Notes: generated from the sequence alone by a model not told the origin. A stretch of DNA of 64,000 bases from Candidatus Gottesmanbacteria bacterium (GCA_903821745.1 CAIJMI010000004.1:85542-149541), one strand, 5' to 3'; positions 3,629 to 37,618 are shown, counted from the stretch's first letter. Made by a program: numbers and translations.

Positions 3629-3636
3629 GCCAATGG

Positions 3637-7870: not shown

Positions 7871-7964
7871 TTTAGTGTCGTTGTTAAACTTCTTAGTTCT
7901 TCCTGTGTAATGTACTACAGTTTTCCAGACAAAACAATCTAGTGTTTGTTTTATTAAATTAGTA

Positions 7965-8011
7965 TTGACAAACTATCACCAGGCGATTATATTGTGGATA
8001 AATTGTCCACA
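7965..8011 (+). promoter_or_regulatory. dnaA promoter (TTGACA -35 at 7965-7970, 17-nt spacer, TATATT -10 at 7988-7993) overlapping two DnaA boxes (TGTGGATAA 7993-8001, TTGTCCACA 8003-8011)
   Basis: Direct sequence read: consensus -35, 17 nt spacing, near-consensus -10; perfect reverse-complement DnaA box and 1-mismatch box directly downstream, classic autoregulatory layout. Confidence 0.55.
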
Positions 8012-17830: not shown

Positions 17831-20011
17831 ATGAGTGAAGATTCTGTTGTTGTTGAAATAAAAAATACTAGAGACAGCGAAGAAACGCCCCTTGTCATGG
17901 AGCAGGTTTTTGCCGCTATAGGAAGTGGAAGACCACAAGGGTTTATATCACAATTGTTACATGGTGCATCAAAAGGGACATGGGTGAGTTTTGAAATTGT
18001 TGCGTTCGATAGTACAATTCATTTTTATCTCGTCACCGCACGTTCAACACTTGCATATATTGAAAGCCAATTAACCGCACAATATCCAAAACTTGCCGTG
18101 TCTGAAACGAAAGATGTGTTGCCACAAATCATGGGGACAATACACGTGACGACACAATTGGTATTAGCAAGCCCGTTTTATTATCCGCTTAAAACATATA
18201 AAGACGTTCGGGATATCGATTTACTTTCGAGCACGTTGGGGTGTTTAGCTAAACTAAAAAAAGATCAATCTGCAGTAGTCCAAATTCGAATTGTTCCTGC
18301 AGGATCTTCTTGGCAACGCCACGCTTCAAGTGTCGTTGCACACGGTATTCCAGACTCATCATTTCCGGGAAGAACAAAAAATCATCCGCAAGCCCGGCTT
18401 ATCGAAACAAAAACGAATCAAATTGGCTTTCAAACCGCAATAAGAATAGTTGCAACAGGAGAAAATCAGGAAGCTGCACAAACAACCCTTTCCACCATTG
18501 CTGGAACATTTGGGGTGTTTGGCCTTGGGGAAGGAAACGCGCTGGTTCCCAATAAACCGACTTTTTGGCAACAAAAAAAATTAGAAGCAGCAATTCTTGA
18601 ACGCTCGGGAGCGCTGGCACCAAAATTTCATGTACTTGGGTCTTCGGAACTTGCTTCACTGTGGCACCCACCAGGACTTTTGCTTTCAGCAATTCGAAAT
18701 ATCTCCTGGGGAGCAAAATTAACAGGCGAGGCGCCGGAGAATTTGCCAATTGCAACGGAAGATGAAGAAGAGAAAAAACGAATTAATTTTTTTGCGCGGA
18801 CCGAATTTAAAAATAAACTAACAACATTTGGAATTAAAAGCGATGATCGGAGAAAACACCTGTATGTTGTTGGAAAAACAGGCACCGGAAAATCAACCAT
18901 GATTGCAACCATGGCAATTAACGACATGCGAAACCATGAGGGTATGGCCGTTATTGATCCTCATGGAGATTTAACAGATGCGCTGTTGGATTTTGTTCCG
19001 TCTTTTAGGTTGAATGACGTTGCGTATCTTGATCCTGCAGATTTTGAACACCCGTTTCATCTGAACCCACTAGAACTCAAAAATCCTGCACATCGAGAGC
19101 TAGTTGCATCAGGAATTGTGTCTATTTTTTACAAGCTGTATCACTATTCTTGGGGACCGAGACTCGAATATATTCTCAGAAATTGTATTTTGACACTGTT
19201 ATACGTTCCAAACTCAACACTCTTGGAGATTCCAGAAATTCTTACTAATGACAGATATCGAGAAAAGATTGTCATGGGCCTTCCAGATCACGTGTTAAAG
19301 AATTTTTGGATCAATGAATATAACAAATTGACGCCACAGATGAGAAGTGAGTCAATCATGCCAATTTTAAATAAGGTGGGTCAATTTTTATCATCTCAAA
19401 CAATCAGAAATATTGTGGGAAATCCAAAATCAACCATAGATCTTGAAGAAATGATGAACAAAGGAAAAATTATTTTAGTGAATTTATCACAGGGAAAATT
19501 AGGGGAAGACAACAGCGCACTATTGGGCGCCATGATTATTACAAAAATTCAACTTGCCGCAATGAACCGCGTCTATGAGCAAGAACAGACTAGAAAAGAC
19601 TTCTATCTCTATGTTGACGAGTTTCAAAATTTTGCAACAAGTTCATTCATTAAAATTCTTTCTGAAGCCAGGAAGTATCGGCTCAACTTGACGCTTGCCA
19701 ATCAATATATCGGACAAATCGATGAAGATGTCCAGAATGCTATCTTTGGAAACGCTGGATCCATTGTGTCGTTTTGTGTTGGCGCAACGGACGCACGGCC
19801 ACTAGCTCGGGAATTTGGACTCAAATACAAGGAAGAAGAATTAGTACAACTTGGCAACTATCAAATCGTATTAAAGCTTTCCATTGATAACCATACATCA
19901 AGTCCATTCTCAGCTACCACCTTGCCGCTTCCCAGGTCTCATAACCAAAGTAGGGAAAAGGTGATTCGGTCAAGCCGTGAACGGTATACCAAAACAATTG
20001 AGAAGTCATAA
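17831..20011 (+). CDS. T4SS coupling-protein-like ATPase (VirD4/TraG/TraD family, FtsK/HerA superfamily)
   Basis: Walker A VVGKTGTGKST, VIDPHGDL motif, Walker B LYVDEFQNF; no N-terminal TM helices, so could alternatively be a cytoplasmic DUF87/HerA-like ATPase. Confidence 0.5.
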   Translation: MSEDSVVVEIKNTRDSEETPLVMEQVFAAIGSGRPQGFISQLLHGASKGTWVSFEIVAFDSTIHFYLVTARSTLAYIESQLTAQYPKLAVSETKDVLPQIMGTIHVTTQLVLASPFYYPLKTYKDVRDIDLLSSTLGCLAKLKKDQSAVVQIRIVPAGSSWQRHASSVVAHGIPDSSFPGRTKNHPQARLIETKTNQIGFQTAIRIVATGENQEAAQTTLSTIAGTFGVFGLGEGNALVPNKPTFWQQKKLEAAILERSGALAPKFHVLGSSELASLWHPPGLLLSAIRNISWGAKLTGEAPENLPIATEDEEEKKRINFFARTEFKNKLTTFGIKSDDRRKHLYVVGKTGTGKSTMIATMAINDMRNHEGMAVIDPHGDLTDALLDFVPSFRLNDVAYLDPADFEHPFHLNPLELKNPAHRELVASGIVSIFYKLYHYSWGPRLEYILRNCILTLLYVPNSTLLEIPEILTNDRYREKIVMGLPDHVLKNFWINEYNKLTPQMRSESIMPILNKVGQFLSSQTIRNIVGNPKSTIDLEEMMNKGKIILVNLSQGKLGEDNSALLGAMIITKIQLAAMNRVYEQEQTRKDFYLYVDEFQNFATSSFIKILSEARKYRLNLTLANQYIGQIDEDVQNAIFGNAGSIVSFCVGATDARPLAREFGLKYKEEELVQLGNYQIVLKLSIDNHTSSPFSATTLPLPRSHNQSREKVIRSSRERYTKTIEKS

Positions 20012-21430: not shown

Positions 21431-24400
21431 ATGGGAACAGAATCAAAAGAGGGTTTAGGAAAAGCAATCGAAGCAACCGTTCAGGTGGTTAAAGCTGCTG
21501 TTGGAATAGAGGGAAACGATCAGTCGCAAACCACCATTGCCGCGGTGAGAAAAATAGAAAAAGAAAAAGCTGAAGCAAGAAAAATTACAGAAGGACTTGA
21601 AACCAATCCATCAAAAACCGAAGCAGAGCTCCAGAAAAAACCAAAAGAACACGTTTCTATTAAAGAGGCGAATGTTCTTTTAGAAAAAGCAACGAGTGCC
21701 CCGCAGGCAAAAAATGTTACATGGTTAATCAGTGAGGTTGGAGATGTGCACCATAATCCAGATGCAATTGCTTTTGTTGCAAGAATTGCAGAAGCGCCAA
21801 CACAGCTGCAAGACGATCCACATTACCTGCTTGCAGAAGGAGCAAAACTTTTTTGGTCAACACCATGGGGTGAACTTTCATCTGAGGCGCACAGGGAAAC
21901 AAGGGCAATATTAAAAAGTGTGTTTAATCGTGTTGAACAACTGCGAGAAAATAATCCAGATTTTACCATTGACCCCGACGTTGTGCGTGAAGGTTTACTT
22001 CCAGAGGCAAGGATGGGACAAAGACAACGGCAACAGAGAAATGGACCACACGTAATGGCGACAGCTGATAATTGGCTAAAAGATTTTGATATTCCTAAAA
22101 ATGAAAGAGGAGAGGTAATTCCGATAAGTGCTGATACGGCAAGAGTAGTTGCTCGGTTCCAAGAATTAGGAAGCAAACAAAATCCTAGAGAAATATCAGA
22201 AGCATGGACGGAAATAGAAGAACTACGAAGATCACAGGCGCATTTAATATCTCCAGATGAAGAGGCATATCTTGAAAGAGTGAAAAAACGTATTTATGAA
22301 ACATTTTGTACGATGAATGGTGACAGATTGCAATTTAGTCCAAATGAATTAAATCAAATTATAAGGGGTCCAAACGCAGCAAGTTTGCGTGATAAATTGT
22401 TTTATGACCGTATTAAAAAGATCCTGTTAAATCCAAACGAAGAGACGCATAAACAAATTAATCTTTATGATCAAGTGGATATGGACATTCTGATGTCCGC
22501 ATACTCTCAAGCTGTCGAAGTTGATCCTCGTACGGGAGTAGAAAGGAAAATCGGTTCCAGTGTTCAGGCACATTATCAGAATCTTTATGACACAATATTA
22601 CGTTTATCAGATACGGAATTTTGGGCAAGGCATCCCGCTGGCGATGTAGAGAATTTACAAAAAACCCTTGGTTATTTTGAAAATAAATTTGCTGTTGAAG
22701 CAATGTCAGATCCTCTTGTTGAGGATATGACGCAATGTATGGAATTGGCCATAAAATTTGTTCGCGATGCAAACGACGGCACCATTCCAGGTGAGCTTTC
22801 ACGATATAATCCAAGAACACAAAGGACATATATTGATGATTTAACATTACAATTTTTTAATCAACGAATGAGAAGTGGTGCAGTAAGAGACTATGTGAGA
22901 AATCCTCAAACTGGTATTCCTGAAGTGGACCCAAAAAATAACGGGAGAACTTTTCTTCGTTCAGACAACGCATTTCATTTTGATACTTTAGTTGAAGAGG
23001 AAAAAGAACTTCGATTATTAGCAACCCTTCGTTTAGCAAAAGGCGTTGGTATTATTACAAATAGAACCATAGAGCTTTACGCTTTCACGCGTACTCCAGG
23101 GGTGGGTCCAAAAGCTGAATCAGGATCTAGATCTGGTTTTTCTAGCAAGGCTTATGGAGGATTAACTCGGTGGACAAATCCGCTTTCCGAATGGTTTGAA
23201 ATGTATGGTTTTGGTGATACATTACATGTTCCTTTTTTCAATGCGCTTCTTGGTGCCGATGGAAAACCGTTTAATTGGAACATGGATCAATTTAAGGAAG
23301 TTATTGATTTAGTCATGGGTGGTGCAAGCGAAAAACAACTTCAAGCAAAGTTCGGACCAAACGCTGGACGAATAATGGATATGGTAAACGACTTTAGCTT
23401 TTCAGGTAGGTTCGGTCCATTATCTATGTGGGGAACGAAAGATGCGACGCTTGATTGGACATTCAAAGAAAACGAACGGCTTGGTGGTTCCATGCGATTG
23501 TCTTTGGCTGGAGGTTGGGCAGAGGAAAAGGTTAAAGCGCGATTTGAGAAAGCTAATGCACATCAAGGATGGACAAAAAGGCAAATGGATGAAGAGTGGA
23601 CAAACGCACGGTTTGGCGAAGGACATTGGGGGGAAAATAATCAATGGAAGCGGGGTGTGGAATTAGAAACCAAGGCATACAAAACGCTGATTTGGTCTCA
23701 AAGCATTTTAAGAAATCCCTTAGGCGCTGCCGCATCCCAAAAAATTGAATACAGATCCTTAGATGGTAGAACACATCAAGGAAAATTAAAAAGCAAAATA
23801 TTACATGATATTTTTCTTCCTGAAGATTTAGCAGCATACGGTCTTACTGACTTGGTGGTGGAACGAGATGTTGCATCAATGCGGTCAATTAGCACGGATA
23901 AACGTTTATTGATGGAACGGATTTCAGTCGTTGATAGTGATTTAAGTTCTGTAATGCGATATGCAATGAATAGTGGAGAATTTCCGCGAGATATTGAATT
24001 GTCAGATTTTGAACGATGTATCGTTGGAGACATTATTATTGATGGGCCCAATGGAAAACTAACAATTACCGAAGAAACACGAAGAAGACAGGCAACGGAA
24101 TTTTGGAAAAAGACTCAACGAGAAATATTGGGGAAAGCAGTTGGAGATGGAGGTCGAGGTTTCGATGCATTAGAAATTAGACAAGAGCTTGGAATTCAGG
24201 GGAACGATGCGGTTCTTAAGCCCAGTGAGATAATCTTTTCTAATATCAACAATTTGGAATCCATTATTGAGAATGCCGCATCATCTAATGCCGCTATGCC
24301 ATTAAAGGAAATGCTTCAGCAACGAATTCAGGTTCATCTTGGCACTGAGGATACTCAATGGAGATATTTAGATTTAGACACGCTTGGAGATCGTCATTGG

Positions 24401-24952
24401 GGGCGTCGTGGAGGAGATAATTTAACTCGGGCAAAAACAGTAAAACTAATGATGGACTATTTTCATAAGCTTGTGGGAAAACCAAAAATGGAAGATTTGG
24501 TAAAAGCTATTGCCGAAATTGGACAATCAGAAAAAGGACATGATCCCAAGGAGGCAGCTAAATTTGCATATATATGGGCAACAGCAACAGCGGACATTTA
24601 TAGACAAAGAAATCTTGCGGAAATTCCGTTTATTGGAAGAATTTTACCAAAACTGGGTATTCCTATGTCCATAGCGCAGGAAAAAATGGGTGTAAATAGC
24701 GCAGATTTTTGGAGTGCCAATAATATGGTGAAATTTGCAGATTTACTTGGGGGGACAAGAGTTATACCAGGACAAAGAATCATAGACGGAAAAGACTTCG
24801 GTCCATATAATATGAAGAAATTTAGAAAAGACATAGGAGCCAGCCGTATCGCAGCGGCGCTTGAAATTTTGATTATTGGTGGTTCATTGGCCGCTGTTAC
24901 ATCCATGTTAGCAGGTGCAACAAAATCCATGGAAGACGAAAAGAAGAAATAA
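21431..24952 (+). CDS. Giant (1173 aa) tail-anchored hypothetical protein within T4SS locus
   Basis: No signal peptide, no recognisable catalytic motif, single C-terminal TM helix (IAAALEILIIGGSLAAVTSMLAG) followed by KKK; sits between nadE and virB6-like gene. Confidence 0.5.
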   Translation: MGTESKEGLGKAIEATVQVVKAAVGIEGNDQSQTTIAAVRKIEKEKAEARKITEGLETNPSKTEAELQKKPKEHVSIKEANVLLEKATSAPQAKNVTWLISEVGDVHHNPDAIAFVARIAEAPTQLQDDPHYLLAEGAKLFWSTPWGELSSEAHRETRAILKSVFNRVEQLRENNPDFTIDPDVVREGLLPEARMGQRQRQQRNGPHVMATADNWLKDFDIPKNERGEVIPISADTARVVARFQELGSKQNPREISEAWTEIEELRRSQAHLISPDEEAYLERVKKRIYETFCTMNGDRLQFSPNELNQIIRGPNAASLRDKLFYDRIKKILLNPNEETHKQINLYDQVDMDILMSAYSQAVEVDPRTGVERKIGSSVQAHYQNLYDTILRLSDTEFWARHPAGDVENLQKTLGYFENKFAVEAMSDPLVEDMTQCMELAIKFVRDANDGTIPGELSRYNPRTQRTYIDDLTLQFFNQRMRSGAVRDYVRNPQTGIPEVDPKNNGRTFLRSDNAFHFDTLVEEEKELRLLATLRLAKGVGIITNRTIELYAFTRTPGVGPKAESGSRSGFSSKAYGGLTRWTNPLSEWFEMYGFGDTLHVPFFNALLGADGKPFNWNMDQFKEVIDLVMGGASEKQLQAKFGPNAGRIMDMVNDFSFSGRFGPLSMWGTKDATLDWTFKENERLGGSMRLSLAGGWAEEKVKARFEKANAHQGWTKRQMDEEWTNARFGEGHWGENNQWKRGVELETKAYKTLIWSQSILRNPLGAAASQKIEYRSLDGRTHQGKLKSKILHDIFLPEDLAAYGLTDLVVERDVASMRSISTDKRLLMERISVVDSDLSSVMRYAMNSGEFPRDIELSDFERCIVGDIIIDGPNGKLTITEETRRRQATEFWKKTQREILGKAVGDGGRGFDALEIRQELGIQGNDAVLKPSEIIFSNINNLESIIENAASSNAAMPLKEMLQQRIQVHLGTEDTQWRYLDLDTLGDRHWGRRGGDNLTRAKTVKLMMDYFHKLVGKPKMEDLVKAIAEIGQSEKGHDPKEAAKFAYIWATATADIYRQRNLAEIPFIGRILPKLGIPMSIAQEKMGVNSADFWSANNMVKFADLLGGTRVIPGQRIIDGKDFGPYNMKKFRKDIGASRIAAALEILIIGGSLAAVTSMLAGATKSMEDEKKK

Positions 24953-24963
24953 TAACCAATAGC

Positions 24964-26343
24964 TTAGGCTGAAGGAGGTTTGGGTTTTGTCTTCAGATTC
25001 TGCAGAATTGATTGTCCATAATAGAAACCAGATACCGCTTGTGTCCCCGTTTGGAATGCTCCAGTAATTGGGCTTAATGCAGCTCCTGCACCCATCGGAA
25101 CCATTGGTTTTGCTTTAAGTGATTCTTGGATTCCTTTGACGATATTTGGAATGATAAAAAGCATACCAAGACCAATAAGCCCTCCAACACCTCCACTACC
25201 GGTTCCCAACATTGGAGGAGTCCAGGTTTTTGTAGATGTACCAATTAAATACCAGCTTACAGTTATGCAAATGGCAGTGATTGGAAAAACGATGAGATGA
25301 GAAATAAGATTTTTTATCCACGAAGCAAACCCATTTCCTCCTGGAACAGCATCGAGCAGTAATTGAATAGGAGCGGTAATAAGACTGATAATGATTTGTA
25401 TGTATGCGTTTAAAAGCATGAAAAAGAGGCGAACTCCACCAAAGAGAAAAGCAAGAGATAAAAGAACAAAGATTAATACTCCCACTACATCATAGACTGG
25501 ATTAAAAAGAGCAAAATAACCAAGTTGTGATTGGCCAGGAAAGAGAAAAGCCATGAGGTCGGGTAATGAGTTAAATCCTGCAAGAAGACCTCGGTTGACA
25601 GCGGAAAAACTACTACTGGAGATGCGCGTAATATGTCCAGCATCAAACATTCCTGTGGGACTTGCATTAACAATAAGTTGAACCCCAAGAATAAGGACAA
25701 CATACATAAGATCAATTAAAATTCCAACAATCGCATAGGAGAAGGTAATAAGAATAAGGGTGATGACGATTTTTGGGAGCGCATTTTGGACTGTTACAAC
25801 AGTTTTTGGATCAATCTTTTTTCGAAACATCACCATAAATCCAATGACAACCATGATGATTGCAAGAAGCGCGTAGCTAATATTTCGGAACGCTTTCCAA
25901 ATGGGAAGGAGTGTTACAAGTCCAGAAAAACCTATGCCTTGCGCATATGCTTTTTTGGGCATAAACCCAAGGGTTTGTCCCATATCTTGCACAAAGGCAT
26001 ATGTTGATGCGGGCGGATTTGCATACATGGTATAGATATAGTTAGATAATCCAGCCATGGCACTTTGTTGCCGCATCGCCTCTGCATAGGGAGTATTCAT
26101 ATCCGCAGCAGATACTGTCAGCCCAGGAACAGGTCCTAAGACACGCCTCACAAAATCTGAGTAGTTATTAGTGTTTACATTTGATACATGAGCAGCAGCG
26201 TTAACATCAGATTGTTTTGCAGCTGCGCTCATGCTTTCTGCATAACCCGCGTCCACCCAACTGGTCTCTTGTGCGTGCACACGAAGAGGCAGTAAGAAAA
26301 GGGTAAAGAGAAAGAAAATCACGTAATACAAGGACCGTTTCAT
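24964..26343 (-). CDS. VirB6/TrbL-like polytopic T4SS membrane protein
   Basis: Signal peptide (…LPLRVHAQE) then >=6 TM helices over 459 aa; immediately upstream of pilin-like gene array. Confidence 0.5.
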   Translation of the reverse strand: MKRSLYYVIFFLFTLFLLPLRVHAQETSWVDAGYAESMSAAAKQSDVNAAAHVSNVNTNNYSDFVRRVLGPVPGLTVSAADMNTPYAEAMRQQSAMAGLSNYIYTMYANPPASTYAFVQDMGQTLGFMPKKAYAQGIGFSGLVTLLPIWKAFRNISYALLAIIMVVIGFMVMFRKKIDPKTVVTVQNALPKIVITLILITFSYAIVGILIDLMYVVLILGVQLIVNASPTGMFDAGHITRISSSSFSAVNRGLLAGFNSLPDLMAFLFPGQSQLGYFALFNPVYDVVGVLIFVLLSLAFLFGGVRLFFMLLNAYIQIIISLITAPIQLLLDAVPGGNGFASWIKNLISHLIVFPITAICITVSWYLIGTSTKTWTPPMLGTGSGGVGGLIGLGMLFIIPNIVKGIQESLKAKPMVPMGAGAALSPITGAFQTGTQAVSGFYYGQSILQNLKTKPKPPSA

Positions 26344-26381
26344 ATTGGTATTATCTGTTACTTTGCAACAAGCGTCAAGAT

Positions 26382-26756
26382 TTATTGCGTTTTATAAATT
26401 TGAAATATCGTCAAGTTTTGAATGCCGGTAACTTTTTGAATAATAAGAAGAATAAGATAGCTACCAACGAGAAGTGCAAGGCCGATAATCGCATTGGAAA
26501 TGGTCCCTTTGGCTTTTTCTAGTTTTTTTTGGTCACCGCCGGAAAAGAGGAAGGTAAATCCTCCAATGACCAGCATGACAAATAAGACAACGCCAGCAAA
26601 TGCAGTAACAGCACGTATCACATTGCCAAATACCGAAACTAGCGATGAAATGGTTGCAACATCCGCTGGTCCATTAGGCCCAGCCTTTTCCAGGCCAACC
26701 CAATTAGAAGTTGCTTGCGCAAGGGTGTTCATGATGTTAAGTATACCAGATATCAA
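26382..26756 (-). CDS. VirB2/TrbC-like T4SS pilin family protein (paralog 1)
   Basis: Two hydrophobic helices separated by conserved GG(F)TFLFSGGD..K motif; ~100-135 aa; member of 6-gene tandem array. Confidence 0.5.
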   Translation of the reverse strand: MISGILNIMNTLAQATSNWVGLEKAGPNGPADVATISSLVSVFGNVIRAVTAFAGVVLFVMLVIGGFTFLFSGGDQKKLEKAKGTISNAIIGLALLVGSYLILLIIQKVTGIQNLTIFQIYKTQ

Positions 26757-26803
26757 AAATCCCCCAAAGGGGGATTTTTGAATATACTCTTATTTTTAAC
26801 AAA

Positions 26804-27136
26804 TTAATACGGTTTTGGAAGGTTAATTCCTTGAGAACCGATGATGTTGACGCCTAAGAAACTCTGCACCAACATCATAATTGCCCACGCCGCTCCGACG
26901 ATAATAAGTCCAACGATTGCATGAGTAATTTTATTTCGTGCTGCTTCCATGGCTGCTTTGTCTCCACCTGAGGTAATCCATTGAAGACCACCCAAAATCA
27001 AGAACAAAAATGCCATGAGTGCGGCCAAAATAAGGAGTGTTCCGACAACTGCACTTATTAGTTGTCCAACATCGGTAATGCGGATACCCGTTGGTTGTGC
27101 AACAGTAAGATCAGCTGCAAATAGTTTTTCTAACAT
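26804..27136 (-). CDS. VirB2/TrbC-like T4SS pilin family protein (paralog 2)
   Basis: LILGGLQWITSGGDKAAMEAARNKITHAIVGLIIV motif; strong SD (AGGAGGTGA) upstream. Confidence 0.5.
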   Translation of the reverse strand: MLEKLFAADLTVAQPTGIRITDVGQLISAVVGTLLILAALMAFLFLILGGLQWITSGGDKAAMEAARNKITHAIVGLIIVGAAWAIMMLVQSFLGVNIIGSQGINLPKPY

Positions 27137-27222
27137 ACGTCACCTCCTTAAATTACTTTACAATTAGTACAAAATAGGAACAATGCTTATTTTATTATAC
27201 GGTACTCACTGTAAATCAGCAA

Positions 27223-27570
27223 TCAACCACCAAACGATGGAATTTTGAGTGCTTTGATGTCGATACCCAAAAATTGTCCAATCAGCGTGAATATCGCATA
27301 TGCTGCTGCAACAATAATCAGTCCAATCATTGCATTCGTTATTTTATTTCGTGCCTGTTCCAGTTGTGCTTTGTCTCCGCCAGACGTGAGCCATTGAATG
27401 CCGCCAAGGAGAAGATACATAAATGTGAGAAAGAATGCAAAAATAAAAAGAAGCCCTGCAATGTTACTGACTAATTTTCCAATGACGGTTCCTCCTTGTT
27501 CAGTTGTTCCAGACCCCAAAAGTGGTGGGAGAACGGGATTCGTAATTTGTGCAAGTATTTGTTGTCCCAT
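27223..27570 (-). CDS. VirB2/TrbC-like T4SS pilin family protein (paralog 3)
   Basis: LLLGGIQWLTSGGDKAQLEQARNKITNAMIGLIIV motif. Confidence 0.5.
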   Translation of the reverse strand: MGQQILAQITNPVLPPLLGSGTTEQGGTVIGKLVSNIAGLLFIFAFFLTFMYLLLGGIQWLTSGGDKAQLEQARNKITNAMIGLIIVAAAYAIFTLIGQFLGIDIKALKIPSFGG

Positions 27571-27572
27571 GA

Positions 27573-27980
27573 TTATTTAAAAATAATACTATTTATATTC
27601 GGTGATAAAATATTTGTCCATCCAAAGAATTGGCCTGCAAGCGCAACAATAGCCCATCCTACAACAACAATGACCAATCCGATGAATGCATTGGATATTT
27701 TATCACGTGCTTCCGTGAGTTTTGCTTTATCTCCTCCAGCAGTGATCCAACTAATACCGCCAAGTAAAACTTGGATGAAAAACCATATAGCTGCAACAAC
27801 AGTTAAAAGACCAATAATGGCAGAGATCGCTCCGGTAAATTTCGTCATGACGTTACCAGCATTAAAACTTCCGGTTCCAAAAGGACCAAGACCAGATCCG
27901 CCAATGCGATCGGTTGTGAGTGGTACGGCCTGCTGTGCGAGAAGTCTATCCATATTAAGGTGTGACGGCTGATGGGCCAT
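27573..27980 (-). CDS. VirB2/TrbC-like T4SS pilin family protein (paralog 4)
   Basis: VLLGGISWITAGGDKAKLTEARDKISNAFIGLVIV motif; real start may be internal Met (MDRLLAQ) removing overlap with next gene. Confidence 0.5.
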   Translation of the reverse strand: MAHQPSHLNMDRLLAQQAVPLTTDRIGGSGLGPFGTGSFNAGNVMTKFTGAISAIIGLLTVVAAIWFFIQVLLGGISWITAGGDKAKLTEARDKISNAFIGLVIVVVGWAIVALAGQFFGWTNILSPNINSIIFK

Positions 27981-28335
27981 AAATAACTGGTTTTAATATA
28001 AACATTGCATCTCCAAATAATATGTATCCAAATAAGGCAGCAAGAACGAACGATCCCGCAATAATGGCAAGTCCAAGGAGTGTTTGCCAAATTCTTCCCC
28101 AGGCTTTGGTGAGTGCTTTTGAGTCGCCACCAGCGCTCATATATTCAAAACCAGCAATAATTAAATTGATGAATGCGTAAATCCCGGCAACCACAAAGAC
28201 AAGACGAAGGAGATTGGATAAAAATACGACTAAACCACCACCTCTGACGTCGGCATACGGAAGGGGATTTGAAATTTTTCCGATAATGTCAGTTGCTGAC
28301 GTGTCTGCTAGAGCAAAAATGCGTTCGATAAACAT
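27955..28335 (-). CDS. VirB2/TrbC-like T4SS pilin family protein (paralog 5)
   Basis: LIIAGFEYMSAGGDSKALTKAWGRIWQTLLGLAII motif. Confidence 0.45.
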   Translation of the reverse strand: MFIERIFALADTSATDIIGKISNPLPYADVRGGGLVVFLSNLLRLVFVVAGIYAFINLIIAGFEYMSAGGDSKALTKAWGRIWQTLLGLAIIAGSFVLAALFGYILFGDAMFILKPVIYGPSAVTP

Positions 28336-28336
28336 A

Positions 28337-28651
28337 TTATTTTGGTAAAATGGTTACTCCGGTAATTATTTCAATAATCTGTATGATCCAGTAGGAAGCA
28401 AAAATAAGAACAAGCCCAATTGCTGCTGATGTCAGTGCTTGTTTACTCTGTTCTGCTTTTTTTGCATCCCCGCTACCTGCTGATACTATAAAGCTAAAAC
28501 CTCCAAAAATCAATAAAACTAAGAAAATAACGCCTGCGATAACGAAGGCGTTTTTAAGGATAACATTAACAAAAGACCCGATGGTAGGAAATGATTTGGC
28601 GGGAGCAAATACTTGTCCAATATTAACTGTTGGAATTGGTTCCATATTCAA
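28337..28651 (-). CDS. VirB2/TrbC-like T4SS pilin family protein (paralog 6)
   Basis: LIFGGFSFIVSAGSGDAKKAEQSKQALTSAAIGLVLI motif. Confidence 0.45.
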   Translation of the reverse strand: MNMEPIPTVNIGQVFAPAKSFPTIGSFVNVILKNAFVIAGVIFLVLLIFGGFSFIVSAGSGDAKKAEQSKQALTSAAIGLVLIFASYWIIQIIEIITGVTILPK

Positions 28652-28703: not shown

Positions 28704-29255
28704 ATGAAGCACGGTATGGACGATGCAAAACTGATTTCTCGAATACTTGCTCGTGACGAACACGCCCTCCACGAGTTTTATATTACTTACGCGCCAAAAT
28801 TGCGCAGGTTTATCCAAACAAAAATTCAAAATCCAAATGATGGGGAAGATATTTTACAGGATACACTCTATGCATTTTTGGATGCTATTCGTGATTTTCA
28901 AGGCAACTGTCAAATGAACACGTTTTTGCAGTCAATCTGTAACCATAAAATTATTGATTACTATCGTAAAAAAAAGATACGAAATGTGGTATTTTCCCAA
29001 CTACCAGAAGTGGAAGGTTTAGTTTCTCCCTTATTAAATCCCGAAGAAGCGCTTGATGAAGTTGTGTTACGTGAGGAATTGCATAAAACATTAAATAAAT
29101 TGCTCCCGCAATACAAGCATGTTCTGTATTCCAGATATATATTAAACATGCCGGTTGCGGATATCGCAAAAAAACTCGCAGTTACTTTAAAAAGTGCAGA
29201 ATCGATGCTGTTTCGTGCAAAAAAAGCATTTGTCAAAACCCATGAACACATTTAA
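28704..29255 (+). CDS. RNA polymerase sigma-70 factor, ECF subfamily
   Basis: Region 2 (ILQDTLYAFLDAIRDF..) and region 4 HTH (MPVADIAKKLAVTLKSAESMLFRAKKAF) signatures; 183 aa. Confidence 0.8.
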   Translation: MKHGMDDAKLISRILARDEHALHEFYITYAPKLRRFIQTKIQNPNDGEDILQDTLYAFLDAIRDFQGNCQMNTFLQSICNHKIIDYYRKKKIRNVVFSQLPEVEGLVSPLLNPEEALDEVVLREELHKTLNKLLPQYKHVLYSRYILNMPVADIAKKLAVTLKSAESMLFRAKKAFVKTHEHI

Positions 29256-29472
29256 ATACAAAAATTTGGTTTCTCGGTGGAGAGAAACGACAGAGTTGAC
29301 GCCACAGACGGTTGGGCCATTGACTGGACTGTATAAACAGGTTACCCATCGATTAAAAATCATGCCTATTCCAACGTTGATTTTGTTAAGCTGTATTCTT
29401 GTTTGCGGTGTTGTGTTTCTTTTAGGGCCTTCTATTGCTTCCCTGGTGAGCCTTCTGCAGCGAGGGTTTTAA
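29242..29472 (+). CDS. Putative single-pass anti-sigma factor (small membrane protein)
   Basis: Overlaps ECF sigma stop; short cytoplasmic N-terminus then one TM helix (PIPTLILLSCILVCGVVFLLGPSIASLV); assignment by position only. Confidence 0.3.
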   Translation: MNTFKYKNLVSRWRETTELTPQTVGPLTGLYKQVTHRLKIMPIPTLILLSCILVCGVVFLLGPSIASLVSLLQRGF

Positions 29473-29497
29473 CGTCCTGTTACGACAAATACTATAT

Positions 29498-30115
29498 ATG
29501 AAGGGACATACCTTACGTGGGTGTATTGGATTTGCAAGAACAACCATTGGTCTTGTTACTCGCCCATACGAAACATACCGCCGGATTGTTAATCACGGCT
29601 CCTTGTGGGAATTGGTTCCGCTTTCCGTACTCCTTGCATGTTATTTTGCAATTGCCTCATTGGTAAAAACTGCAGCATTTCGTCCATTTGTATTAACAAA
29701 ACAATTTATTATTCTTGCCATTTCGGTTTGTGTGACCTATGGGGTGACGGTTTCATTATTGTGGTGTGTTGCAAAAATCATGAAGGGAAAAGGAACGTTT
29801 CGTTCACTTGCGCTTGCGTGGGGATATACCCTTGTACCAACCCTGCTGTGGTTTTTAATTACGTCGCTTCTTTATGTGCTGTTTCCACCACCGCGAACAG
29901 GAAGACCACTTGGTATATTGTTTAGCGCGTTATATCTATCTTTTTCAACCGTTCTTTTTTTCTGGAAGGCGATGCTTACCTATCTTACATTACGGTTTGG
30001 TATGCGGCTCGACCTGTTTCGAATTATTGCTGTATGTGGAATTGTTGGAAGCGTAATGGTATTTTATAGTCTTGGGATGTATCACTTAGGGATTTTTAAA
30101 ATTCCATTTATATAA
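29498..30115 (+). CDS. Polytopic membrane protein (Yip1-domain-like)
   Basis: Five predicted TM helices, 205 aa; no catalytic motif. Confidence 0.35.
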   Translation: MKGHTLRGCIGFARTTIGLVTRPYETYRRIVNHGSLWELVPLSVLLACYFAIASLVKTAAFRPFVLTKQFIILAISVCVTYGVTVSLLWCVAKIMKGKGTFRSLALAWGYTLVPTLLWFLITSLLYVLFPPPRTGRPLGILFSALYLSFSTVLFFWKAMLTYLTLRFGMRLDLFRIIAVCGIVGSVMVFYSLGMYHLGIFKIPFI

Positions 30116-30116
30116 T

Positions 30117-31259
30117 ATGAAATTAAATAAAACAGAGTCAGTATCCAGAAGACGAAAAGAAGTTGAAAAATACTTACATATTTCTCTTGCTAACACTGGC
30201 TCCTTTTCACTGGATGAAGAAATGGCTGCAACACGGCACTGTGAACACATGATTGGGGTAACGCAAGTTCCACTCGGTGTTGCAGGCCCACTCAAATATA
30301 GAACGTTGCAGTCACCATTTCAGGAAGTATATCTTCCACTTGCCACAACGGAGGGTGCGCTTATTGCATCTATTAATCGGGGATGTAAAGCAATTGTTGA
30401 AAGTGGAGGAGCGGTCGTGGATAGCTATGATGTTGGGGCAACACGTGGTCCGGTATTTTACACAAAAAATTTGAAGGAAAGCGATCGACTAAACATATTT
30501 TTGGATGCGCATCTTAAAGAAATGCAACAACTTGTTCGAGTTACATCGAATCACTGTACACTAAAAAAAATATTTTCCCGTGGTGTTGGACAATATCGGT
30601 TTGTTCGTTTTGTGTTTGATACACAAGATGCCATGGGCTTAAACATGGTAACCATTGCCACAGAAAAAATTGCACAATATATCGAAGAAAAAACAGGAAT
30701 TGTTTGCGTTTCATTATCCGGAAACTATTGTGTCGACAAAAAGCCATCATGGCTTAATGCAATTGAGGGGCGTGGCTCAAAAGTGTGGGCAGAAGTTGTT
30801 ATTCCGGAAACAGTAATAAAAAGCATACTTAAAACAACGGCGCAAAATATATATGACGTCTGGATTTCAAAATGCATGATGGGAAGCGTGATGAGTGGTT
30901 CGATGGGCTATAACGCACAATTTGCCAATGTCCTAGCAGCGGTCTTTTTGGCAACAGGCCAGGACATCGCACATGTTATAGAATGTTCAATTGGTATCAC
31001 CACGACGGAAGTTCGCGGGAAAGATTTATATGTGAGTGTGTATTTGCCGGACCTTTTGGTGGGCACTGTGGGTGGCGGGACCGAACTTGCCACGCAAAAA
31101 GAAGCATTACAAATTCTTGGCGTATATGGAAAAGACAAAAAACAATTTGTAGGAATTATTGGGGCAGCGGTGCTTGCTGGAGAAATTTCACTCCTGGCGA
31201 GCTTGGCTGAAGGAACGCTTGCGAAAGCACACATAAAGCTGGCAAGAGGAAAGAAATAA
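30117..31259 (+). CDS. hmgA: Hydroxymethylglutaryl-CoA reductase
   Basis: Conserved HMGR motifs EHMIGVTQVPLGVAGPL, DAMGLNMV, GTVGGGT; 380 aa. Confidence 0.85.
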   Translation: MKLNKTESVSRRRKEVEKYLHISLANTGSFSLDEEMAATRHCEHMIGVTQVPLGVAGPLKYRTLQSPFQEVYLPLATTEGALIASINRGCKAIVESGGAVVDSYDVGATRGPVFYTKNLKESDRLNIFLDAHLKEMQQLVRVTSNHCTLKKIFSRGVGQYRFVRFVFDTQDAMGLNMVTIATEKIAQYIEEKTGIVCVSLSGNYCVDKKPSWLNAIEGRGSKVWAEVVIPETVIKSILKTTAQNIYDVWISKCMMGSVMSGSMGYNAQFANVLAAVFLATGQDIAHVIECSIGITTTEVRGKDLYVSVYLPDLLVGTVGGGTELATQKEALQILGVYGKDKKQFVGIIGAAVLAGEISLLASLAEGTLAKAHIKLARGKK

Positions 31260-31266
31260 TACAGAT

Positions 31267-32310
31267 ATGATTGGCATCGTCTCATACGGAACATATGTAC
31301 CAAAATATCGGGTGAGAGTTACCGATATAGCTTCTGCATGGAAGAAAAATCCCGCTGATATTATCGGTGTCCTTGGGGTAAAAGAAAAAACGGTTCCCGG
31401 TGTGGATGAAGATGCAGTAACCATAGCGGTAGAGGCAGCACTGCAAAGTCTGAAAAATTTTCATGGGATCCCAGCAGATATTGAAGCTTTGCTTATTGGA
31501 TCAGAAAGCCATCCATATGCAGTGAACCCTTCATCAACTATTGTTGGGGAGATGCTTGAAATTGGAAACAAGTATTTGGCATCGGATTTGGAATTTGCAT
31601 GTAAAGCAGGAACTGCCGGCATGCAAATGATTGCCAGTTTGGTTTCCTCAGGGCAAATAACCTATGGTATGGCCATTGGTGCAGATACCGCACAAAGCAA
31701 ACCTCACGATGCGTTGGAATATACTTCCGCTTCTGCAGGAGTTGCAATGTTGATGGGGAAAACAAAGACGATTGCATCGTTGTTGTCATACACATCCTAT
31801 TCTTCAGACACACCAGATTTTTGGCGGCGTGATGGAATTCGGTATCCGTCACATGCAGGCAGATTTACTGGAGAACCTGCATATTTTGCACACGTTATGG
31901 GAGCAGCAAACCAATTGATGAAAAAAGTGCGTATTCAGCCTAAAGATATTGATTACTGTATTTTTCATATGCCAAATGGAAAATTCCCTCGTGAAGTTGC
32001 AAAACGGTTGGGATTTACCGAGAAACAATTGGCTCCGTCTTTGACTGTTGATTATATCGGCAATCCCTATTCTGCATCAGCCATGATGGGGCTTGCTGCG
32101 GTACTCGATATTGCAAAACCAAACAAAAAAATATTTATGGTGTCCTACGGATCAGGTGCAGGGAGCGACGCATTTTTATGGAAAACAACAGCAAACATTA
32201 CTGCGTTGCAGGCAAAACGAAAAAAGCAGCAAGGTCTAGTGATGCAACAAGTGGAACAGAAAAGCTTTGTCGATTATCTTGGATATCTAAAACAAACACA
32301 CAAAATATGA
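31267..32310 (+). CDS. Hydroxymethylglutaryl-CoA synthase (archaeal/PksG-like type)
   Basis: N-terminus MIGIVSYGTYVPKYRV typical of archaeal HMGS; thiolase-like fold; followed by thiolase and DUF35 genes. Confidence 0.8.
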   Translation: MIGIVSYGTYVPKYRVRVTDIASAWKKNPADIIGVLGVKEKTVPGVDEDAVTIAVEAALQSLKNFHGIPADIEALLIGSESHPYAVNPSSTIVGEMLEIGNKYLASDLEFACKAGTAGMQMIASLVSSGQITYGMAIGADTAQSKPHDALEYTSASAGVAMLMGKTKTIASLLSYTSYSSDTPDFWRRDGIRYPSHAGRFTGEPAYFAHVMGAANQLMKKVRIQPKDIDYCIFHMPNGKFPREVAKRLGFTEKQLAPSLTVDYIGNPYSASAMMGLAAVLDIAKPNKKIFMVSYGSGAGSDAFLWKTTANITALQAKRKKQQGLVMQQVEQKSFVDYLGYLKQTHKI

Positions 32311-33449
32311 ACATAACCGTTGCAGGAATCGGTATTACAAAGTTTGGAGAATTATGGTCAGCCTCTCCGCGGTCGCTTGCGAAGATTGCGGTGGAAATGG
32401 CAATTGCTGATAGCGGTGTTGAAAAGAAATCAATTCAAGGATTGTTTGTTGCAAATATGCTTGCAGGAATGCTGGGAATGCAGGGTCATCTTGGCGCATT
32501 ATTTTCTGAAGAGCTGGGACTTTCTGTTCCTGCATATACTGTTGAAGGAGCGTGTGCATCTGGCGGACTGGCAGTACAAGCCGGTGTCATGAGTATTCTG
32601 TCTGGACAGTACGATACCGTCGTAGTACTTGGGGTAGAAAAAATGACGGATCACAAACCGGAAGAAGTAAGCTCTGCATTGATGGGGGCGGGAAGTAATG
32701 AAGAGCGACTTGCAGGTGCAACATTCCCGGGACTCTATGCCATGCTTGCTCGGGCGCATATGGAAAAATTTGGTACAACAGAAAAACAAATGGCAGCAGT
32801 TGCAGTAAAGAATCATTTTCATGCAAGTTTAAACCCAAATGCACAATATAAGAATACAATTACCGTTGATCACGTACTGCGCAGTTCTTGTATTGCAGAC
32901 CCATTGAAACTTTTGGATTGTTCTCCAGTAACAGATGGCGCCGCAGCAATTGTCCTTACGAAAGACACAAAAAACAAAAAAGGAGTGCATATCATTGCTT
33001 CCCAAATAGCAACAGATACGTTGGGACTTGCGGGGAGGAAAAGCTTAACTGAGCTTTCTGCAACCAAACAAGCAGCGCAACATGCATTTATCCAAGCTGG
33101 AGTTGGTCAAAAAGATATTCATCTTGCGGAAGTACATGATTGTTTTACCATTGCAGAAATTCTTGCCATTGAAGATATTGGATTTGGAAAAAAAGGAGAA
33201 GTTGGAAGAGAGATGGAACATGGTACATACACGCTTGGAACTGCACCGGGAGTTGTTGTGAATTCGTCAGGAGGACTGAAAGGGTGTGGTCATCCAATTG
33301 GTGCAACTGGTGTAAAACAAATTGTTGAAATTACCAGCCAATTACGAGGAACGTGCGGAAAACGGCAGGTTCATGATGCAAAAATTGGACTTGCACATAA
33401 CGTTGGGGGAAGTGGCGCAACCGCGGTTGTTCACATTTTACAAAAATAA
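32307..33449 (+). CDS. Acetyl-CoA acetyltransferase (thiolase, archaeal type)
   Basis: Start set at MNITVAGIGITKFGE (ATGA overlap with HMGS stop); C-terminal thiolase motifs GCGHPIGATG and NVGGSGA. Confidence 0.8.
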   Translation: MNITVAGIGITKFGELWSASPRSLAKIAVEMAIADSGVEKKSIQGLFVANMLAGMLGMQGHLGALFSEELGLSVPAYTVEGACASGGLAVQAGVMSILSGQYDTVVVLGVEKMTDHKPEEVSSALMGAGSNEERLAGATFPGLYAMLARAHMEKFGTTEKQMAAVAVKNHFHASLNPNAQYKNTITVDHVLRSSCIADPLKLLDCSPVTDGAAAIVLTKDTKNKKGVHIIASQIATDTLGLAGRKSLTELSATKQAAQHAFIQAGVGQKDIHLAEVHDCFTIAEILAIEDIGFGKKGEVGREMEHGTYTLGTAPGVVVNSSGGLKGCGHPIGATGVKQIVEITSQLRGTCGKRQVHDAKIGLAHNVGGSGATAVVHILQK

Positions 33450-33453
33450 AAAT

Positions 33454-33753
33454 ATGATAAGCCCTGTTAAAATTTGGCGAAATCAAAAACACACAGCGAA
33501 ACTCGTCGGAAAAACCGGCAGTATTTTAGTCTGGACCATTATCCGCGTGCCACCTGAAGGATTTAGTAATCAAGCACCGTATCCACTTGCGGTGGTTGTT
33601 CTTGATAAAGGACCAACTATTACTGCACAGGTTGTTGATTGGGACGAGAAACAATTGCACACAAAACAAAAAGTGATTACGGTTATTCGTCGGACAATTG
33701 ATACAACTGCTGACGGGGTGATTCCATACGGCATGAAAGTAAAACCAGTATGA
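33454..33753 (+). CDS. DUF35 OB-fold protein (HMGS/thiolase complex partner), no Zn-ribbon
   Basis: ~99 aa ORF immediately after thiolase, start MISPVK 4 nt after thiolase stop; position and size match third subunit of archaeal thiolase/HMGS complex; lacks Cys of Zn ribbon. Confidence 0.5.
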   Translation: MISPVKIWRNQKHTAKLVGKTGSILVWTIIRVPPEGFSNQAPYPLAVVVLDKGPTITAQVVDWDEKQLHTKQKVITVIRRTIDTTADGVIPYGMKVKPV

Positions 33754-34688
33754 TAACAGTTTCTGTTCCAGGAAAAATTCATTTGATGGGAGAGCATGCG
33801 GTGGTATATGGGACACCGGCGCTACTTGCGGCAATCAATAAACGCATGTCTATATCAATTGAATCCGCAAAAAAAACTGAAATTATCACGTTGGAATCAA
33901 AAAAGTATGTGTCGTATGCACTTGAACAGGTAAAAAAATATTTGCATATGGAAACGCTCCCTCCAATGCGGATTACCATCACATCAAATATCCCTGCAGG
34001 ATTTCACTTAGGGTCATCTGCAGCAGCAGCCGTTGGTATCGTTGCTGCTGTTATTTATTTCATAAAAAAAATATGGAATCCAAATTTAATAAATCAAATT
34101 GCCTATGAGGTAGAGAAAAAGCAACATGGAAATCCATCTGGTGGAGATAATACCATAGTGACCATGGGGGGAATGATCTGGTTCCGGAAAGAATTAGAAT
34201 TTTTAAAAAGCATATGGCAACTTGATATAGCCATTCCTAAATCATTAAATCATTTTGTCCTTGTAAATACCGGGAAGCCAAAAGAAACAACTGGAGAGAT
34301 GGTTGCTTTCGTTCGAATAAAAGTAAATAAGAATCCAGAAAAAATGAAACGATTGTTCCTAGAAAATGAAGAACAAGTGAAAAAAATTGCAGTAGCAATA
34401 AAAGAAGAAAATGAGACAATGTTACTGAATGCACTTAAACAGGGTGAACAAACACTTGAAAAAATGGGAGTTGTTGGCAAAACAATTATTCCTTGTATAC
34501 GGGCAATTGAAGCATCAGGGGGAGCAGTAAAAATTCTAGGTGGCGGCGGAAAAAAGGAAGGCGTTGGGTTTCTTCTCTGCTATCATAAAAAGAAGAAGAT
34601 TTTGGAAAACATAACAAAAAAATTTGGTTATCCTATTGAAAACATTGTATTAGGAGAAGCAGGCGTTCGTCTTGACCGAAAGGAATAA
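33750..34688 (+). CDS. mvk: Mevalonate kinase (GHMP kinase)
   Basis: N-terminal PGKIHLMGEHAVVYG and GHMP motif PAGFHLGSSAAAAVG. Confidence 0.7.
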   Translation: MITVSVPGKIHLMGEHAVVYGTPALLAAINKRMSISIESAKKTEIITLESKKYVSYALEQVKKYLHMETLPPMRITITSNIPAGFHLGSSAAAAVGIVAAVIYFIKKIWNPNLINQIAYEVEKKQHGNPSGGDNTIVTMGGMIWFRKELEFLKSIWQLDIAIPKSLNHFVLVNTGKPKETTGEMVAFVRIKVNKNPEKMKRLFLENEEQVKKIAVAIKEENETMLLNALKQGEQTLEKMGVVGKTIIPCIRAIEASGGAVKILGGGGKKEGVGFLLCYHKKKKILENITKKFGYPIENIVLGEAGVRLDRKE

Positions 34689-34693
34689 GAAAT

Positions 34694-35617
34694 ATGTTGA
34701 CTGTTTCAGCACCAGGAAAACTTATGCTTATGGGGGAACATGCCGTTGTGTACGGATACCCCTGTATTGTAACCGCGGTGTCTGAACGGTTATCTGTGTC
34801 AATTGAAGAAACACAGGATGAAAAAATAACTATTGATGCGCCACAGGTGAAGGACACCCGATTTGTGGATCAGGCAATTATTGAAGGATGTAAGGCATGG
34901 AACATTACGCATCATGGTTTACGTTTAACCACCCACAGCAATTTTTCTAACTGTTATGGATTCGGATCATCATCAGCGGTTACTGTTGCAACACTGTATG
35001 CAATTGCAACCCTTTTTAAACAATCTCTTGATACAAAAATGTTGTTTGATCTTGCATATCAAACCGTGCTTGCAATTCAAGGTGTAGGTTCTGGATTTGA
35101 CATTGCCGCAGCAATATATGGTGGAACGATCGTTTATACAAAAGGCGGAAAAATTTTAGACCAACTAGCATGGGATTTAAATAATGATGTGTCACTGGTT
35201 GTTGGATATACGGGAATGAAAGCAGATACACCAACCATTGTAAAAGAGATCGCAAAAAAGAAAGAAGAACAACCAGAACGGGTAAATAGAATTTTTGAAG
35301 CAATTGCAAAACTCGTGATGCAGGCCAAAACTGCAGGAGACAAAAAAGATTGGGAAACTGTTGGGAAATTTATGAATTTCAATCAAGAATATTTGCGTGA
35401 TCTTGGAGTAAGCACTGAAAAACTTGAGGTAATGATTCATGCGGCAAACAAAGCAGGGGCCTACGGTGCAAAATTATCGGGCGCAGGAGGCGGCGATTGT
35501 ATGATTGCACTGACCCTAACGGAAAAAAAGAAAATTATTGAACAGGCAATTATTTCAGTAGGTGGTATTGTTGTTCCCGTGAGTATCCATACGGAAGGGG
35601 TACGGATAGAGCAATGA
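34694..35617 (+). CDS. GHMP kinase, probable phosphomevalonate kinase
   Basis: PGKLMLMGEHAVVYG N-terminus and GFGSSSAVTVA GHMP motif; second GHMP kinase between mvk and decarboxylase. Confidence 0.55.
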   Translation: MLTVSAPGKLMLMGEHAVVYGYPCIVTAVSERLSVSIEETQDEKITIDAPQVKDTRFVDQAIIEGCKAWNITHHGLRLTTHSNFSNCYGFGSSSAVTVATLYAIATLFKQSLDTKMLFDLAYQTVLAIQGVGSGFDIAAAIYGGTIVYTKGGKILDQLAWDLNNDVSLVVGYTGMKADTPTIVKEIAKKKEEQPERVNRIFEAIAKLVMQAKTAGDKKDWETVGKFMNFNQEYLRDLGVSTEKLEVMIHAANKAGAYGAKLSGAGGGDCMIALTLTEKKKIIEQAIISVGGIVVPVSIHTEGVRIEQ

Positions 35618-36597: not shown

Positions 36598-36598
36598 T

Positions 36599-37617: not shown

Positions 37618-37618
37618 A

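Follow-up and report, generated by a model that had tools for sequence, protein, structure and literature searches.

Tandem arrays of genes for VirB2-like pilins have been described in type IV secretion systems (T4SSs) of Patescibacteria. A total of 441 arrays of 2-11 such genes were found in 383 Patescibacteria assemblies, chiefly of Microgenomatia and Saccharimonadia (Quinonero-Coronel et al. 2025, PMC12102498), and an essential pilin series is present in the T4SS cluster of Ca. Southlakia epibionticum ML1 (Wang et al. 2023, PMC10633639), an organism whose epibiotic growth requires the T4SS (PMC10633639, PMC12857230). A comparable array of six genes, designated p6 to p1 in the order of transcription, is found at positions 26382-28651 (minus strand) of a 64,000-nucleotide stretch of DNA from a Candidatus Gottesmanbacteria bacterium (GCA_903821745.1, CAIJMI010000004.1:85542-149541; hereafter, the window). 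The closest named relatives of the window are Candidatus Gottesmanbacteria / Microgenomates (Microgenomatia, candidate phyla radiation (CPR)/Patescibacteria). In our assessment, the array is probably the pilin-gene cassette of a chromosomal, Patescibacteria-type T4SS in Candidatus Gottesmanbacteria (Microgenomatia).

The array falls within the published definition, which requires at least two PF18895 or PF04956 genes that stand in tandem or one gene apart in a Patescibacteria genome with VirB4 (PMC12102498). As in the published arrays, the genes belong to PF18895, are arranged in tandem, share approximately 25% identity within the array, and are found in Microgenomatia, where such arrays are most abundant. 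The accompanying T4SS is likewise chromosomal, relaxase-less and MPF-FATA-like, and is located next to dnaA and dnaN. The number of genes also equals the six pilins of Southlakia, a likeness of gene number. In contrast to the published arrays, the six genes of the Gottesmanbacteria array (eight with two detached paralogues, p7 and p8) form a fixed, 1:1-orthologous set under purifying selection, and expression signals set one member, p2, apart from the rest.

The six consecutive small open reading frames (ORFs) on the minus strand, which a first-pass annotation of the window had reported with lengths of 104-135 residues, were found as described. With the likely ATG starts for p6, p4 and p1, which were assigned by reading of the DNA and by orthologue alignment, the lengths become 102-126 residues. 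The first gene, p6 (28337-28645), encodes 102 residues from the ATG at 28645 and scores 30.8 bits against PF18895; the mechanically called ORF spans 28337-28651 and encodes 104 residues from a TTG start at 28651. The start of p5 (27955-28335, 126 residues, 22.1 bits), the most divergent paralogue, lies 1 nt past the p6 stop codon (TAATATG), and a C-terminal YGP motif is conserved in its orthologues. For p4, the mechanical ORF (27573-27980, 135 residues) would overlap p5; the ATG at 27953 lies 1 nt past the p5 stop codon and yields a gene of 27573-27953 (126 residues, 27.1 bits) with an MxxLLA start that is backed by the orthologue alignment. Next, p3 (27223-27570, 115 residues, 33.9 bits) begins 2 nt past the p4 stop codon and resembles p2 more closely than any other paralogue does (44% core identity). 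The last two genes are p2 (26804-27136, 110 residues, 38.4 bits), the candidate major subunit, and p1 (26382-26732, 116 residues from the ATG at 26732, 36.8 bits; mechanical ORF 26382-26756, 124 residues). Public gene calls on the 234-kb source contig (ENA ERZ27313374 k141_417974) agree with the likely ATG codons of p6 (102 residues) and p1 (116 residues), and give p4 135 residues from 27980. The array had been placed downstream of a VirB6-like gene; relative to transcription, it lies upstream of that gene.

All six proteins share the architecture previously noted, with two hydrophobic segments that flank a mildly basic loop (net charge +1 to +2 in p1-p7) and a core motif of the form ..GG(F/I/L)x(W/F/Y)(I/L/M)(T/S/F)(S/A)GGD.K. 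Minor deviations are observed in p5, where the first GG is AG, and in p6, where an inserted Ser gives SAGSGD. Beyond this core, the strong divergence reported for the paralogues is confirmed by pairwise identities of 21-33%. A hidden Markov model (HMM) of the family nonetheless selects exactly eight members, p1-p8, from the 471 frames of at least 50 residues in the window, including p5 at 110 bits and p8 at 58.5 bits; together with the independent PF18895 matches, this recovery greatly exceeds what chance would give. At the DNA level, the sole match between paralogues is a 133-nt stretch of p2 and p3 that is 71% identical. Near-identical DNA repeats were not found, and the only matches above 71% identity are two short ones (14-25 nt, two copies each) such as chance alone would produce, which argues against recent duplication or gene conversion.

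Profile searches bear out the assignment of these proteins to a pilin family. The T4SS_pilin family PF18895, which has a whole-protein gathering score of 26.6 bits, matches each of p1-p8, and six of these (p1, p2, p3, p4, p6 and p7) exceed that score. The remaining two, p5 (22.1 bits) and p8 (22.5 bits), fall below it but are clearly recognized as members by the family HMM. When 75 paralogues and orthologues were scanned singly at E-values up to 1, PF18895 was matched by 74. The weaker recurrent matches among these relatives include further T4SS pilin families, TrbC/VirB2 PF04956 (11/75) and T4SS_CagC (5/75), as well as DUF6112 (15/75); none of the six genes of the window's own array matches PF04956 at an E-value up to 1. 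The NCBIfam Mbov_0395 pilin-like family NF045849 scores 18-38 bits for six of the eight paralogues, in each case below its 40-bit cut-off. At the level of sequence profiles, these results show membership of the curated T4SS-pilin family PF18895, and make homology to VirB2 proper plausible, although weak at the sequence level.

An unrelated family of proteins with two transmembrane helices (holin-like, bacteriocin immunity or a generic DUF), situated near a T4SS by coincidence, might also account for small hairpins of this type, and isolated weak matches to DUF4389, RseC_MucC and MgtC would point in that direction. These matches, however, are scattered and below their cut-offs, in contrast to the near-uniform PF18895 matches of the relatives. 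In addition, linkage to VirB6 is conserved in all full-length related loci, homologues are found inside a Bacillota cluster with VirB4 and M23 genes, and no phage or bacteriocin genes lie nearby. Such a coincidence is thus exceedingly improbable, and a holin, bacteriocin or generic two-helix identity is effectively ruled out by the PF18895 matches and the genomic context.

The Bacillota homologues were located by a tblastn search of plasmids with p7, which led to a gene of a Pontibacillus megaplasmid that is annotated as a Mbov_0395 family pilin-like conjugal transfer protein. In this plasmid (NZ_CP062975, 8782-9694), two tandem pilin-like genes encode proteins of 151 and 145 residues, both with signal peptides, that match the family HMM of the window at 2.8e-19 and 1.3e-17. 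Genes for a VirB4-like ATPase and an M23 peptidase accompany the pair in this Bacillota T4SS cluster. The Mbov_0395 / MMCAP2_0565 family (NF045849), which occurs in Mycoplasma integrative and conjugative elements and in Bacillota, is thus detectably homologous to six of the eight paralogues, and resembles the array in its VirB4-like ATPase and M23 neighbours and in its tandem copies. It differs in that the Bacillota members have signal peptides and longer N-terminal regions, and in that two copies are present as opposed to the six to eight found here. Judged by these matches, monoderm conjugation systems do carry the pilin-like family of p1-p8, and the Bacillota and Mycoplasma homologues suggest that the family came with the monoderm machinery and was not co-opted from diderms.

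The composition of the array is fixed across its relatives. An identical order, with the sigma factor gene followed by p6, p5, p4, p3, p2, p1 and VirB6, is observed in all 11 genome loci and all 24 metagenome loci (35 full-length loci); the metagenome loci counted for order span at least 11 kb and derive from a p2-centred alignment scan that returned close p2 orthologues only (67-90% identity). In this conserved layout, HMGR, Yip1 and an ECF (extracytoplasmic function) sigma factor occupy one strand, and p6-p1 and VirB6 the other. Orthology is 1:1 at every position, with 42-94% identity, well above the identity between paralogues. Of 75 sequences compared, 72 have their closest neighbour in their own positional group. 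Members of any one of the six array groups share 50-69% core identity, compared with 19-44% for members of different groups. Positional orthologues of p6, for example, are present in 57 loci with a median identity of 54%. In comparisons with the four closest genomes, the proportion of nonsynonymous differences (pN) is 0.04-0.30 and that of synonymous differences (pS) is 0.42-0.88 for all six genes. The synonymous rate (dS) is saturated even relative to the closest genome, so the usable result is the coarse one that pN lies far below pS. Because the orthologues are fixed and 1:1, and silent changes are far commoner than replacements, the paralogues are, on this comparative sequence evidence, old, individually conserved and non-redundant, and do not form a fast-varying cassette.

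This result bears on the proposal that the VirB2 copies serve to provide variants of a surface structure and so permit antigenic variation or a switch of host range, an idea that has been put forward for the Patescibacteria arrays (Quinonero-Coronel et al., PMC12102498). Two features of the Gottesmanbacteria array would fit: the paralogues are only 21-33% identical, and orthologues differ most in the N- and C-terminal tails, for which exposure is predicted (30-58% identity, compared with 51-90% for the transmembrane segments and loop). In contrast, copy number and order are invariant in 35/35 full-length loci, the 1:1 orthologues retain 42-94% identity with pN far below pS in the six genes, and the DNA shows neither repeats prone to recombination nor traces of gene conversion. 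The pilins are, moreover, better conserved than VirB6 (median 44%) or a 1173-residue ORF of the locus (about 31%). Diversification of this kind is therefore improbable here, and the published host-versatility idea is unsupported for the Gottesmanbacteria array. A similar distinction applies to the virB2 arrays of Bartonella, Anaplasma and Rickettsiales, which also comprise several divergent tandem copies in effector-type T4SSs. Those arrays are strain-variable and have been read as antigenic or host-interaction variation, whereas the present array is fixed across its clade. Of the two alternatives raised in the first-pass annotation, a fixed major/minor or heteromeric set is thus favoured over diversification under host or partner selection; the rate comparison that it proposed points the same way for all six genes, within the bounds set by saturated dS.

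Two further paralogues, which had been noted at 37288-38182, are real by both PF18895 and the family HMM. These genes are p7 (37288-37617, minus strand, 109 residues, 48.3 bits against PF18895) and p8 (37619-38182, minus strand, 187 residues, 22.5 bits). In p8, a Sec-type signal peptide is followed by a Cys-rich insert of approximately 85 residues (10 Cys) ahead of the pilin hairpin. Its orthologue in a distant related locus, L015, is longer, with 314 residues. Based on these sequence features, p8 may be a tip or adhesin-type subunit. In L015 (5183-8674), p8, p7, p6, p5, p4, p3, p2 and p1 are contiguous and lie beside SpoIID, whereas in the lineage of the window, a block of sigma factor, Yip1, mevalonate and UPPS genes (28704-37285, plus strand) separates p8 and p7 from p6-p1. 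The eight contiguous genes of L015 suggest that the ancestral array probably comprised eight genes.

Within the array, the arrangement of expression signals sets p2 apart. The median gaps between genes, surveyed along with Shine-Dalgarno (SD) sites in 54-94 orthologues per gene, are 2-3 nt for p6-p5, p5-p4 and p4-p3, 88 nt for p3-p2, and 70 nt for p2-p1. The p3-p2 spacer contains a putative sigma-70-like promoter (27194-27222, minus strand; TTGCTG, 17 nt, TATAAT) that was recognized by its match to the consensus, and a -10 box (CGTATAAT) or a TTGACA -35 box recurs in this spacer in related loci. The SD site of p2 (AAGGAGGTGA; 27140-27149, minus strand) is predicted to form a duplex of -13.4 kcal/mol with the 3' end of 16S rRNA, whereas values of +0.9 to -5.9 kcal/mol were obtained for the likely starts of the remaining five genes. 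A strong SD (-8 kcal/mol or lower) is found in 85% of 94 p2 orthologues and in 0-4% of those of the other five genes. The earlier statement that each gene has its own SD does not hold, as a strong site is present at p2 alone, both in the window and across orthologues. Downstream of p2, a hairpin resembling an intrinsic terminator is observed (26755-26779, minus strand; AAAAATCCCCC TTT GGGGGATTTTT). A terminator-like hairpin with a T-run is present in 41/77 of the p2-p1 spacers, and the stems differ between relatives at the same place.

Conservation also distinguishes this gene: p2 is the most conserved paralogue, with a mean pairwise identity of 70% (48-54% for the others) and a median identity to the window of 74% over 80 loci, rising to approximately 90% in the loop and second transmembrane helix. 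Based on its sole strong SD, promoter-like site, terminator-like hairpin and highest conservation, we propose that p2 is expressed strongly and as a unit of its own, and that it is the major subunit. The two genes that follow show a different pattern. A -10-like TATACT stands 7 nt before the ATG of p1, which lacks an SD, and a -10-like GATAAT precedes the VirB6 gene (26733-26745 and 26350-26378, respectively, minus strand, from reading of the sequence). The position of these boxes, 6-7 nt upstream of the ATG, together with the lack of an SD in both genes, suggests that p1 and VirB6 may be translated from leaderless mRNAs. Upstream of p6, no ECF-type promoter was recognizable by eye.

The N-terminal ends of the proteins are unusual for pilins of this type. 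In all p1-p7 orthologue groups, the protein begins with a short motif, M-x(1-4)-hydrophobic-(F/L/Y)-A-(Q/A/D/E), and lacks a hydrophobic leader; examples include MLEKLFAAD, MERIFA and MxxLLAQ. No signal peptide was found in p1-p6, or in examples of their orthologues taken from the longest possible ORFs. In sequence, the motif looks like what would remain of a signal peptide at its cleavage end once the h-region was lost, and it is similar to this part of the signal peptides of p8 and of one p4 orthologue. The array of TM7x, by comparison, has been described as Sec-secreted. The diderm pilins VirB2, TrbC and TraA (PF04956; T-pilus, RP4 and F) are similar to p1-p6 in their small size, two helices, short basic loop and termini predicted to lie outside, and in being encoded beside VirB6 with VirB3 and VirB4. 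They differ in that they are usually encoded by one gene, carry a long signal or leader peptide and often undergo cyclisation or acetylation. Furthermore, the host here is a monoderm, and VirB5, VirB7, VirB9 and VirB10 are absent.

The gene directly downstream of p1 (24964-26343, minus strand) encodes a polytopic protein of 459 residues, and a VirB6 gene follows p1 in related loci too. No Pfam or NCBIfam match was obtained for this protein, the TrbL/VirB6 profiles included. Its AlphaFold model (predicted local distance difference test score (pLDDT) 78) was compared with solved structures using Foldseek. The first four PDB matches are to R388 TrwI/VirB6 (E-value 0.012-0.07, probability 1.00, target TM-score 0.40-0.47), the fifth is to DotA, and ranks 6-8 are again TrwI/VirB6 (E-value 0.32-0.74, probability 0.75-0.95). 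The VirB6-like label given to this neighbour is thereby backed, and by fold the 459-residue protein appears to be a divergent VirB6. Homologues of VirB6 are scarce in Microgenomatia by HMM survey (Quinonero-Coronel et al. 2025, PMC12102498).

Other components of the T4SS, as identified by Pfam and NCBIfam, are encoded nearer to the replication genes. On the minus strand are an M23 peptidase (11686-13899), a VirB4-like ATPase with TraG P-loop/AAA_10 domains (13918-15789), a TrsD-like protein (15793-16443) and a PrgI/VirB3-like protein (16447-17700); a VirD4-like coupling protein is encoded on the plus strand (17831-20011). The VirB4 gene lies approximately 10.6 kb from the array. The PrgI/VirB3-like protein has 417 residues and ends in a CarboxypepD_reg-like (Ig-like) domain. 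The T4SS locus is of the Gram-positive type and lies close to oriC; directly before its genes are dnaA (8032-9399) and dnaN (9590-10696), at the minimum of the cumulative GC skew. No relaxase was found among the main ORFs of the window that were scanned against Pfam. An origin in a mobile element is ruled out by dnaA and dnaN, a tmRNA, tRNAs, housekeeping genes and an even GC content across the locus.

Taken with these neighbours, the array can be placed in a mechanism in which each of p1-p8 would form a VirB2-like helical hairpin of the PF18895 type. The predicted topology comprises an N-terminal tail outside the membrane, a first transmembrane helix, a short basic cytoplasmic loop (SGGDxK..E.A(K/R)), a second transmembrane helix and an outer C-terminal tail. 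The four genes p6, p5, p4 and p3 would be translationally coupled and of low output; p2, with its own promoter, strong SD and terminator, would supply the major subunit; and p1 would be co-expressed with the divergent VirB6. By analogy with R388 and the T-pilus, the hairpins would insert into the membrane independently of a Sec signal peptide, plausibly via YidC. The VirB4 ATPase would then extract them for polymerisation on a VirB6 platform, as in the VirB2/VirB6 model of the diderm T4SS that Mace and co-workers reportedly described for R388 in 2022. The product would be a p2-based filament or stalk in which the other paralogues occupy low-copy base, tip or adaptor positions. Because no relaxase was found, its function is inferred to be host-cell contact or exchange and not conjugation. 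Polymerisation, the subunit roles, the insertion route and the biological function are thus inferred by analogy with these systems.

A similar division of labour is known from type IV pili and type II secretion pseudopili, in which one abundant subunit is encoded together with low-abundance paralogues. These systems belong to an unrelated protein family with a different assembly machine, and the functional logic alone would be shared. Filament systems typically combine a single strongly expressed member with several weak ones, and by this analogy the expression pattern would speak for a filament.

Several observations weigh against a pilin cassette. To our knowledge, none of the PF18895 proteins has been seen to form a filament. 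The matches to TrbC/VirB2 PF04956 are weak, with a best E-value of 0.0028 and just 11 of 75 relatives matched, and a profile of the eight paralogues compared with solved structures retrieved no pilin, the only matches, to light-harvesting and designed proteins, being attributable to chance. Unlike VirB2, TrbC and TraA, p1-p6 have no signal or leader peptide. As dS is saturated, room is left for site-specific positive selection in the exposed tails, and the case for p2 as the major subunit is drawn from expression signals and conservation only. Lastly, monoderm T4SSs are generally pilus-less (PMC12857230).

The last of these points also favours a reading in which the proteins are associated with the T4SS and build no pilus; they might be subunits of a membrane channel, lipid-handling proteins or a short wall-spanning stalk, and the name pilin would be a misnomer. 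The homologues in conjugation clusters of Bacillota and Mycoplasma that make no known pilus are consistent with this reading, as are the missing signal peptides of p1-p6 and their fold, which is not diagnostic. In the AlphaFold model of p2, two helices (20-55 and 60-94) form a hairpin with a core pLDDT above 90; its top Foldseek match, an archaeal conjugation pilus, is non-significant. In contrast, the two transmembrane helices and basic loop resemble VirB2, and the genes are tightly linked to VirB6, which is the pilus-assembly platform in R388. By analogy, both features would argue for a pilus, and we consider the pilus-less reading unlikely, albeit somewhat less so than a cassette for surface variation.

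Within the preferred interpretation of a T4SS pilin cassette, a more detailed proposal can be made only tentatively. Here, a monoderm cell with a wall would build a heteromeric T4SS filament or stalk from a fixed inventory of parts, p1-p8. As the major subunit, p2 would assemble from a form devoid of a signal peptide, and p1 and p3-p8 would each fill a unique low-copy position at the base, at the tip or as an adaptor. The latter seven proteins would also substitute for VirB5, which is missing, and the Cys-rich p8 might serve as an adhesive tip. The motif conserved at the N-terminus would represent a new processing or assembly signal, and the family would have been inherited with monoderm MPF-FATA machinery and not from diderms. 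Taken together with these details, the proposal is possible and falls well short of the probability assigned to a pilin cassette as such.

Divergently from p6, an ECF-type sigma factor with Sigma70_r2 and r4_2 domains is encoded at 28704-29255 (plus strand). It adjoins p6 in every full-length related locus, and given this position may be a regulator of the array. The sigma factor gene is followed on the same strand by a small ORF with a transmembrane segment (a possible anti-sigma factor) and by Yip1 (28704-29472 for the group). On the other side of VirB6, the 1173-residue ORF (21431-24952, plus strand) has a C-terminal transmembrane anchor and no Pfam domain. Its counterparts in syntenic relatives have 1149-1358 residues and are 28-48% identical over partial stretches, with the flanking VirD4 at 77-96%. 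By this comparison, the ORF evolves faster than any other gene of the locus, and may encode a surface or effector protein. Farther away, the region upstream of dnaA (1-8000) contains glycosyltransferases, dTDP-sugar enzymes and an O-antigen-ligase-like gene, with a GC content of 0.33-0.37 relative to approximately 0.40 elsewhere. A transposase-like ORF with a helix-turn-helix and an rve_3 integrase core (61162-62292, plus strand) lies beside a tRNA gene (62354-62425).

Since arrays of this type have already been published (PMC10633639, PMC12102498), the Gottesmanbacteria array is a further example of a known arrangement. The new elements are its fixed orthologous composition, a candidate for the major subunit, the finding that p1-p6 lack signal peptides, a divergent VirB6 and a link by homology to the pilin-like genes in conjugation clusters of Bacillota and Mycoplasma. 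The fixed composition argues against the published suggestion of versatility, and paralogues that are ancient, individually constrained and differently expressed argue for a multi-part structure over a cassette for variation. These results nominate p2 as the subunit to seek in filaments, and locate a VirB6, by fold, in a Microgenomatia locus where profile surveys found few. Epibiotic growth of the one experimentally tractable member of the Patescibacteria depends on the T4SS and on its pilin series, and the comparison made here bears on the role of that series.

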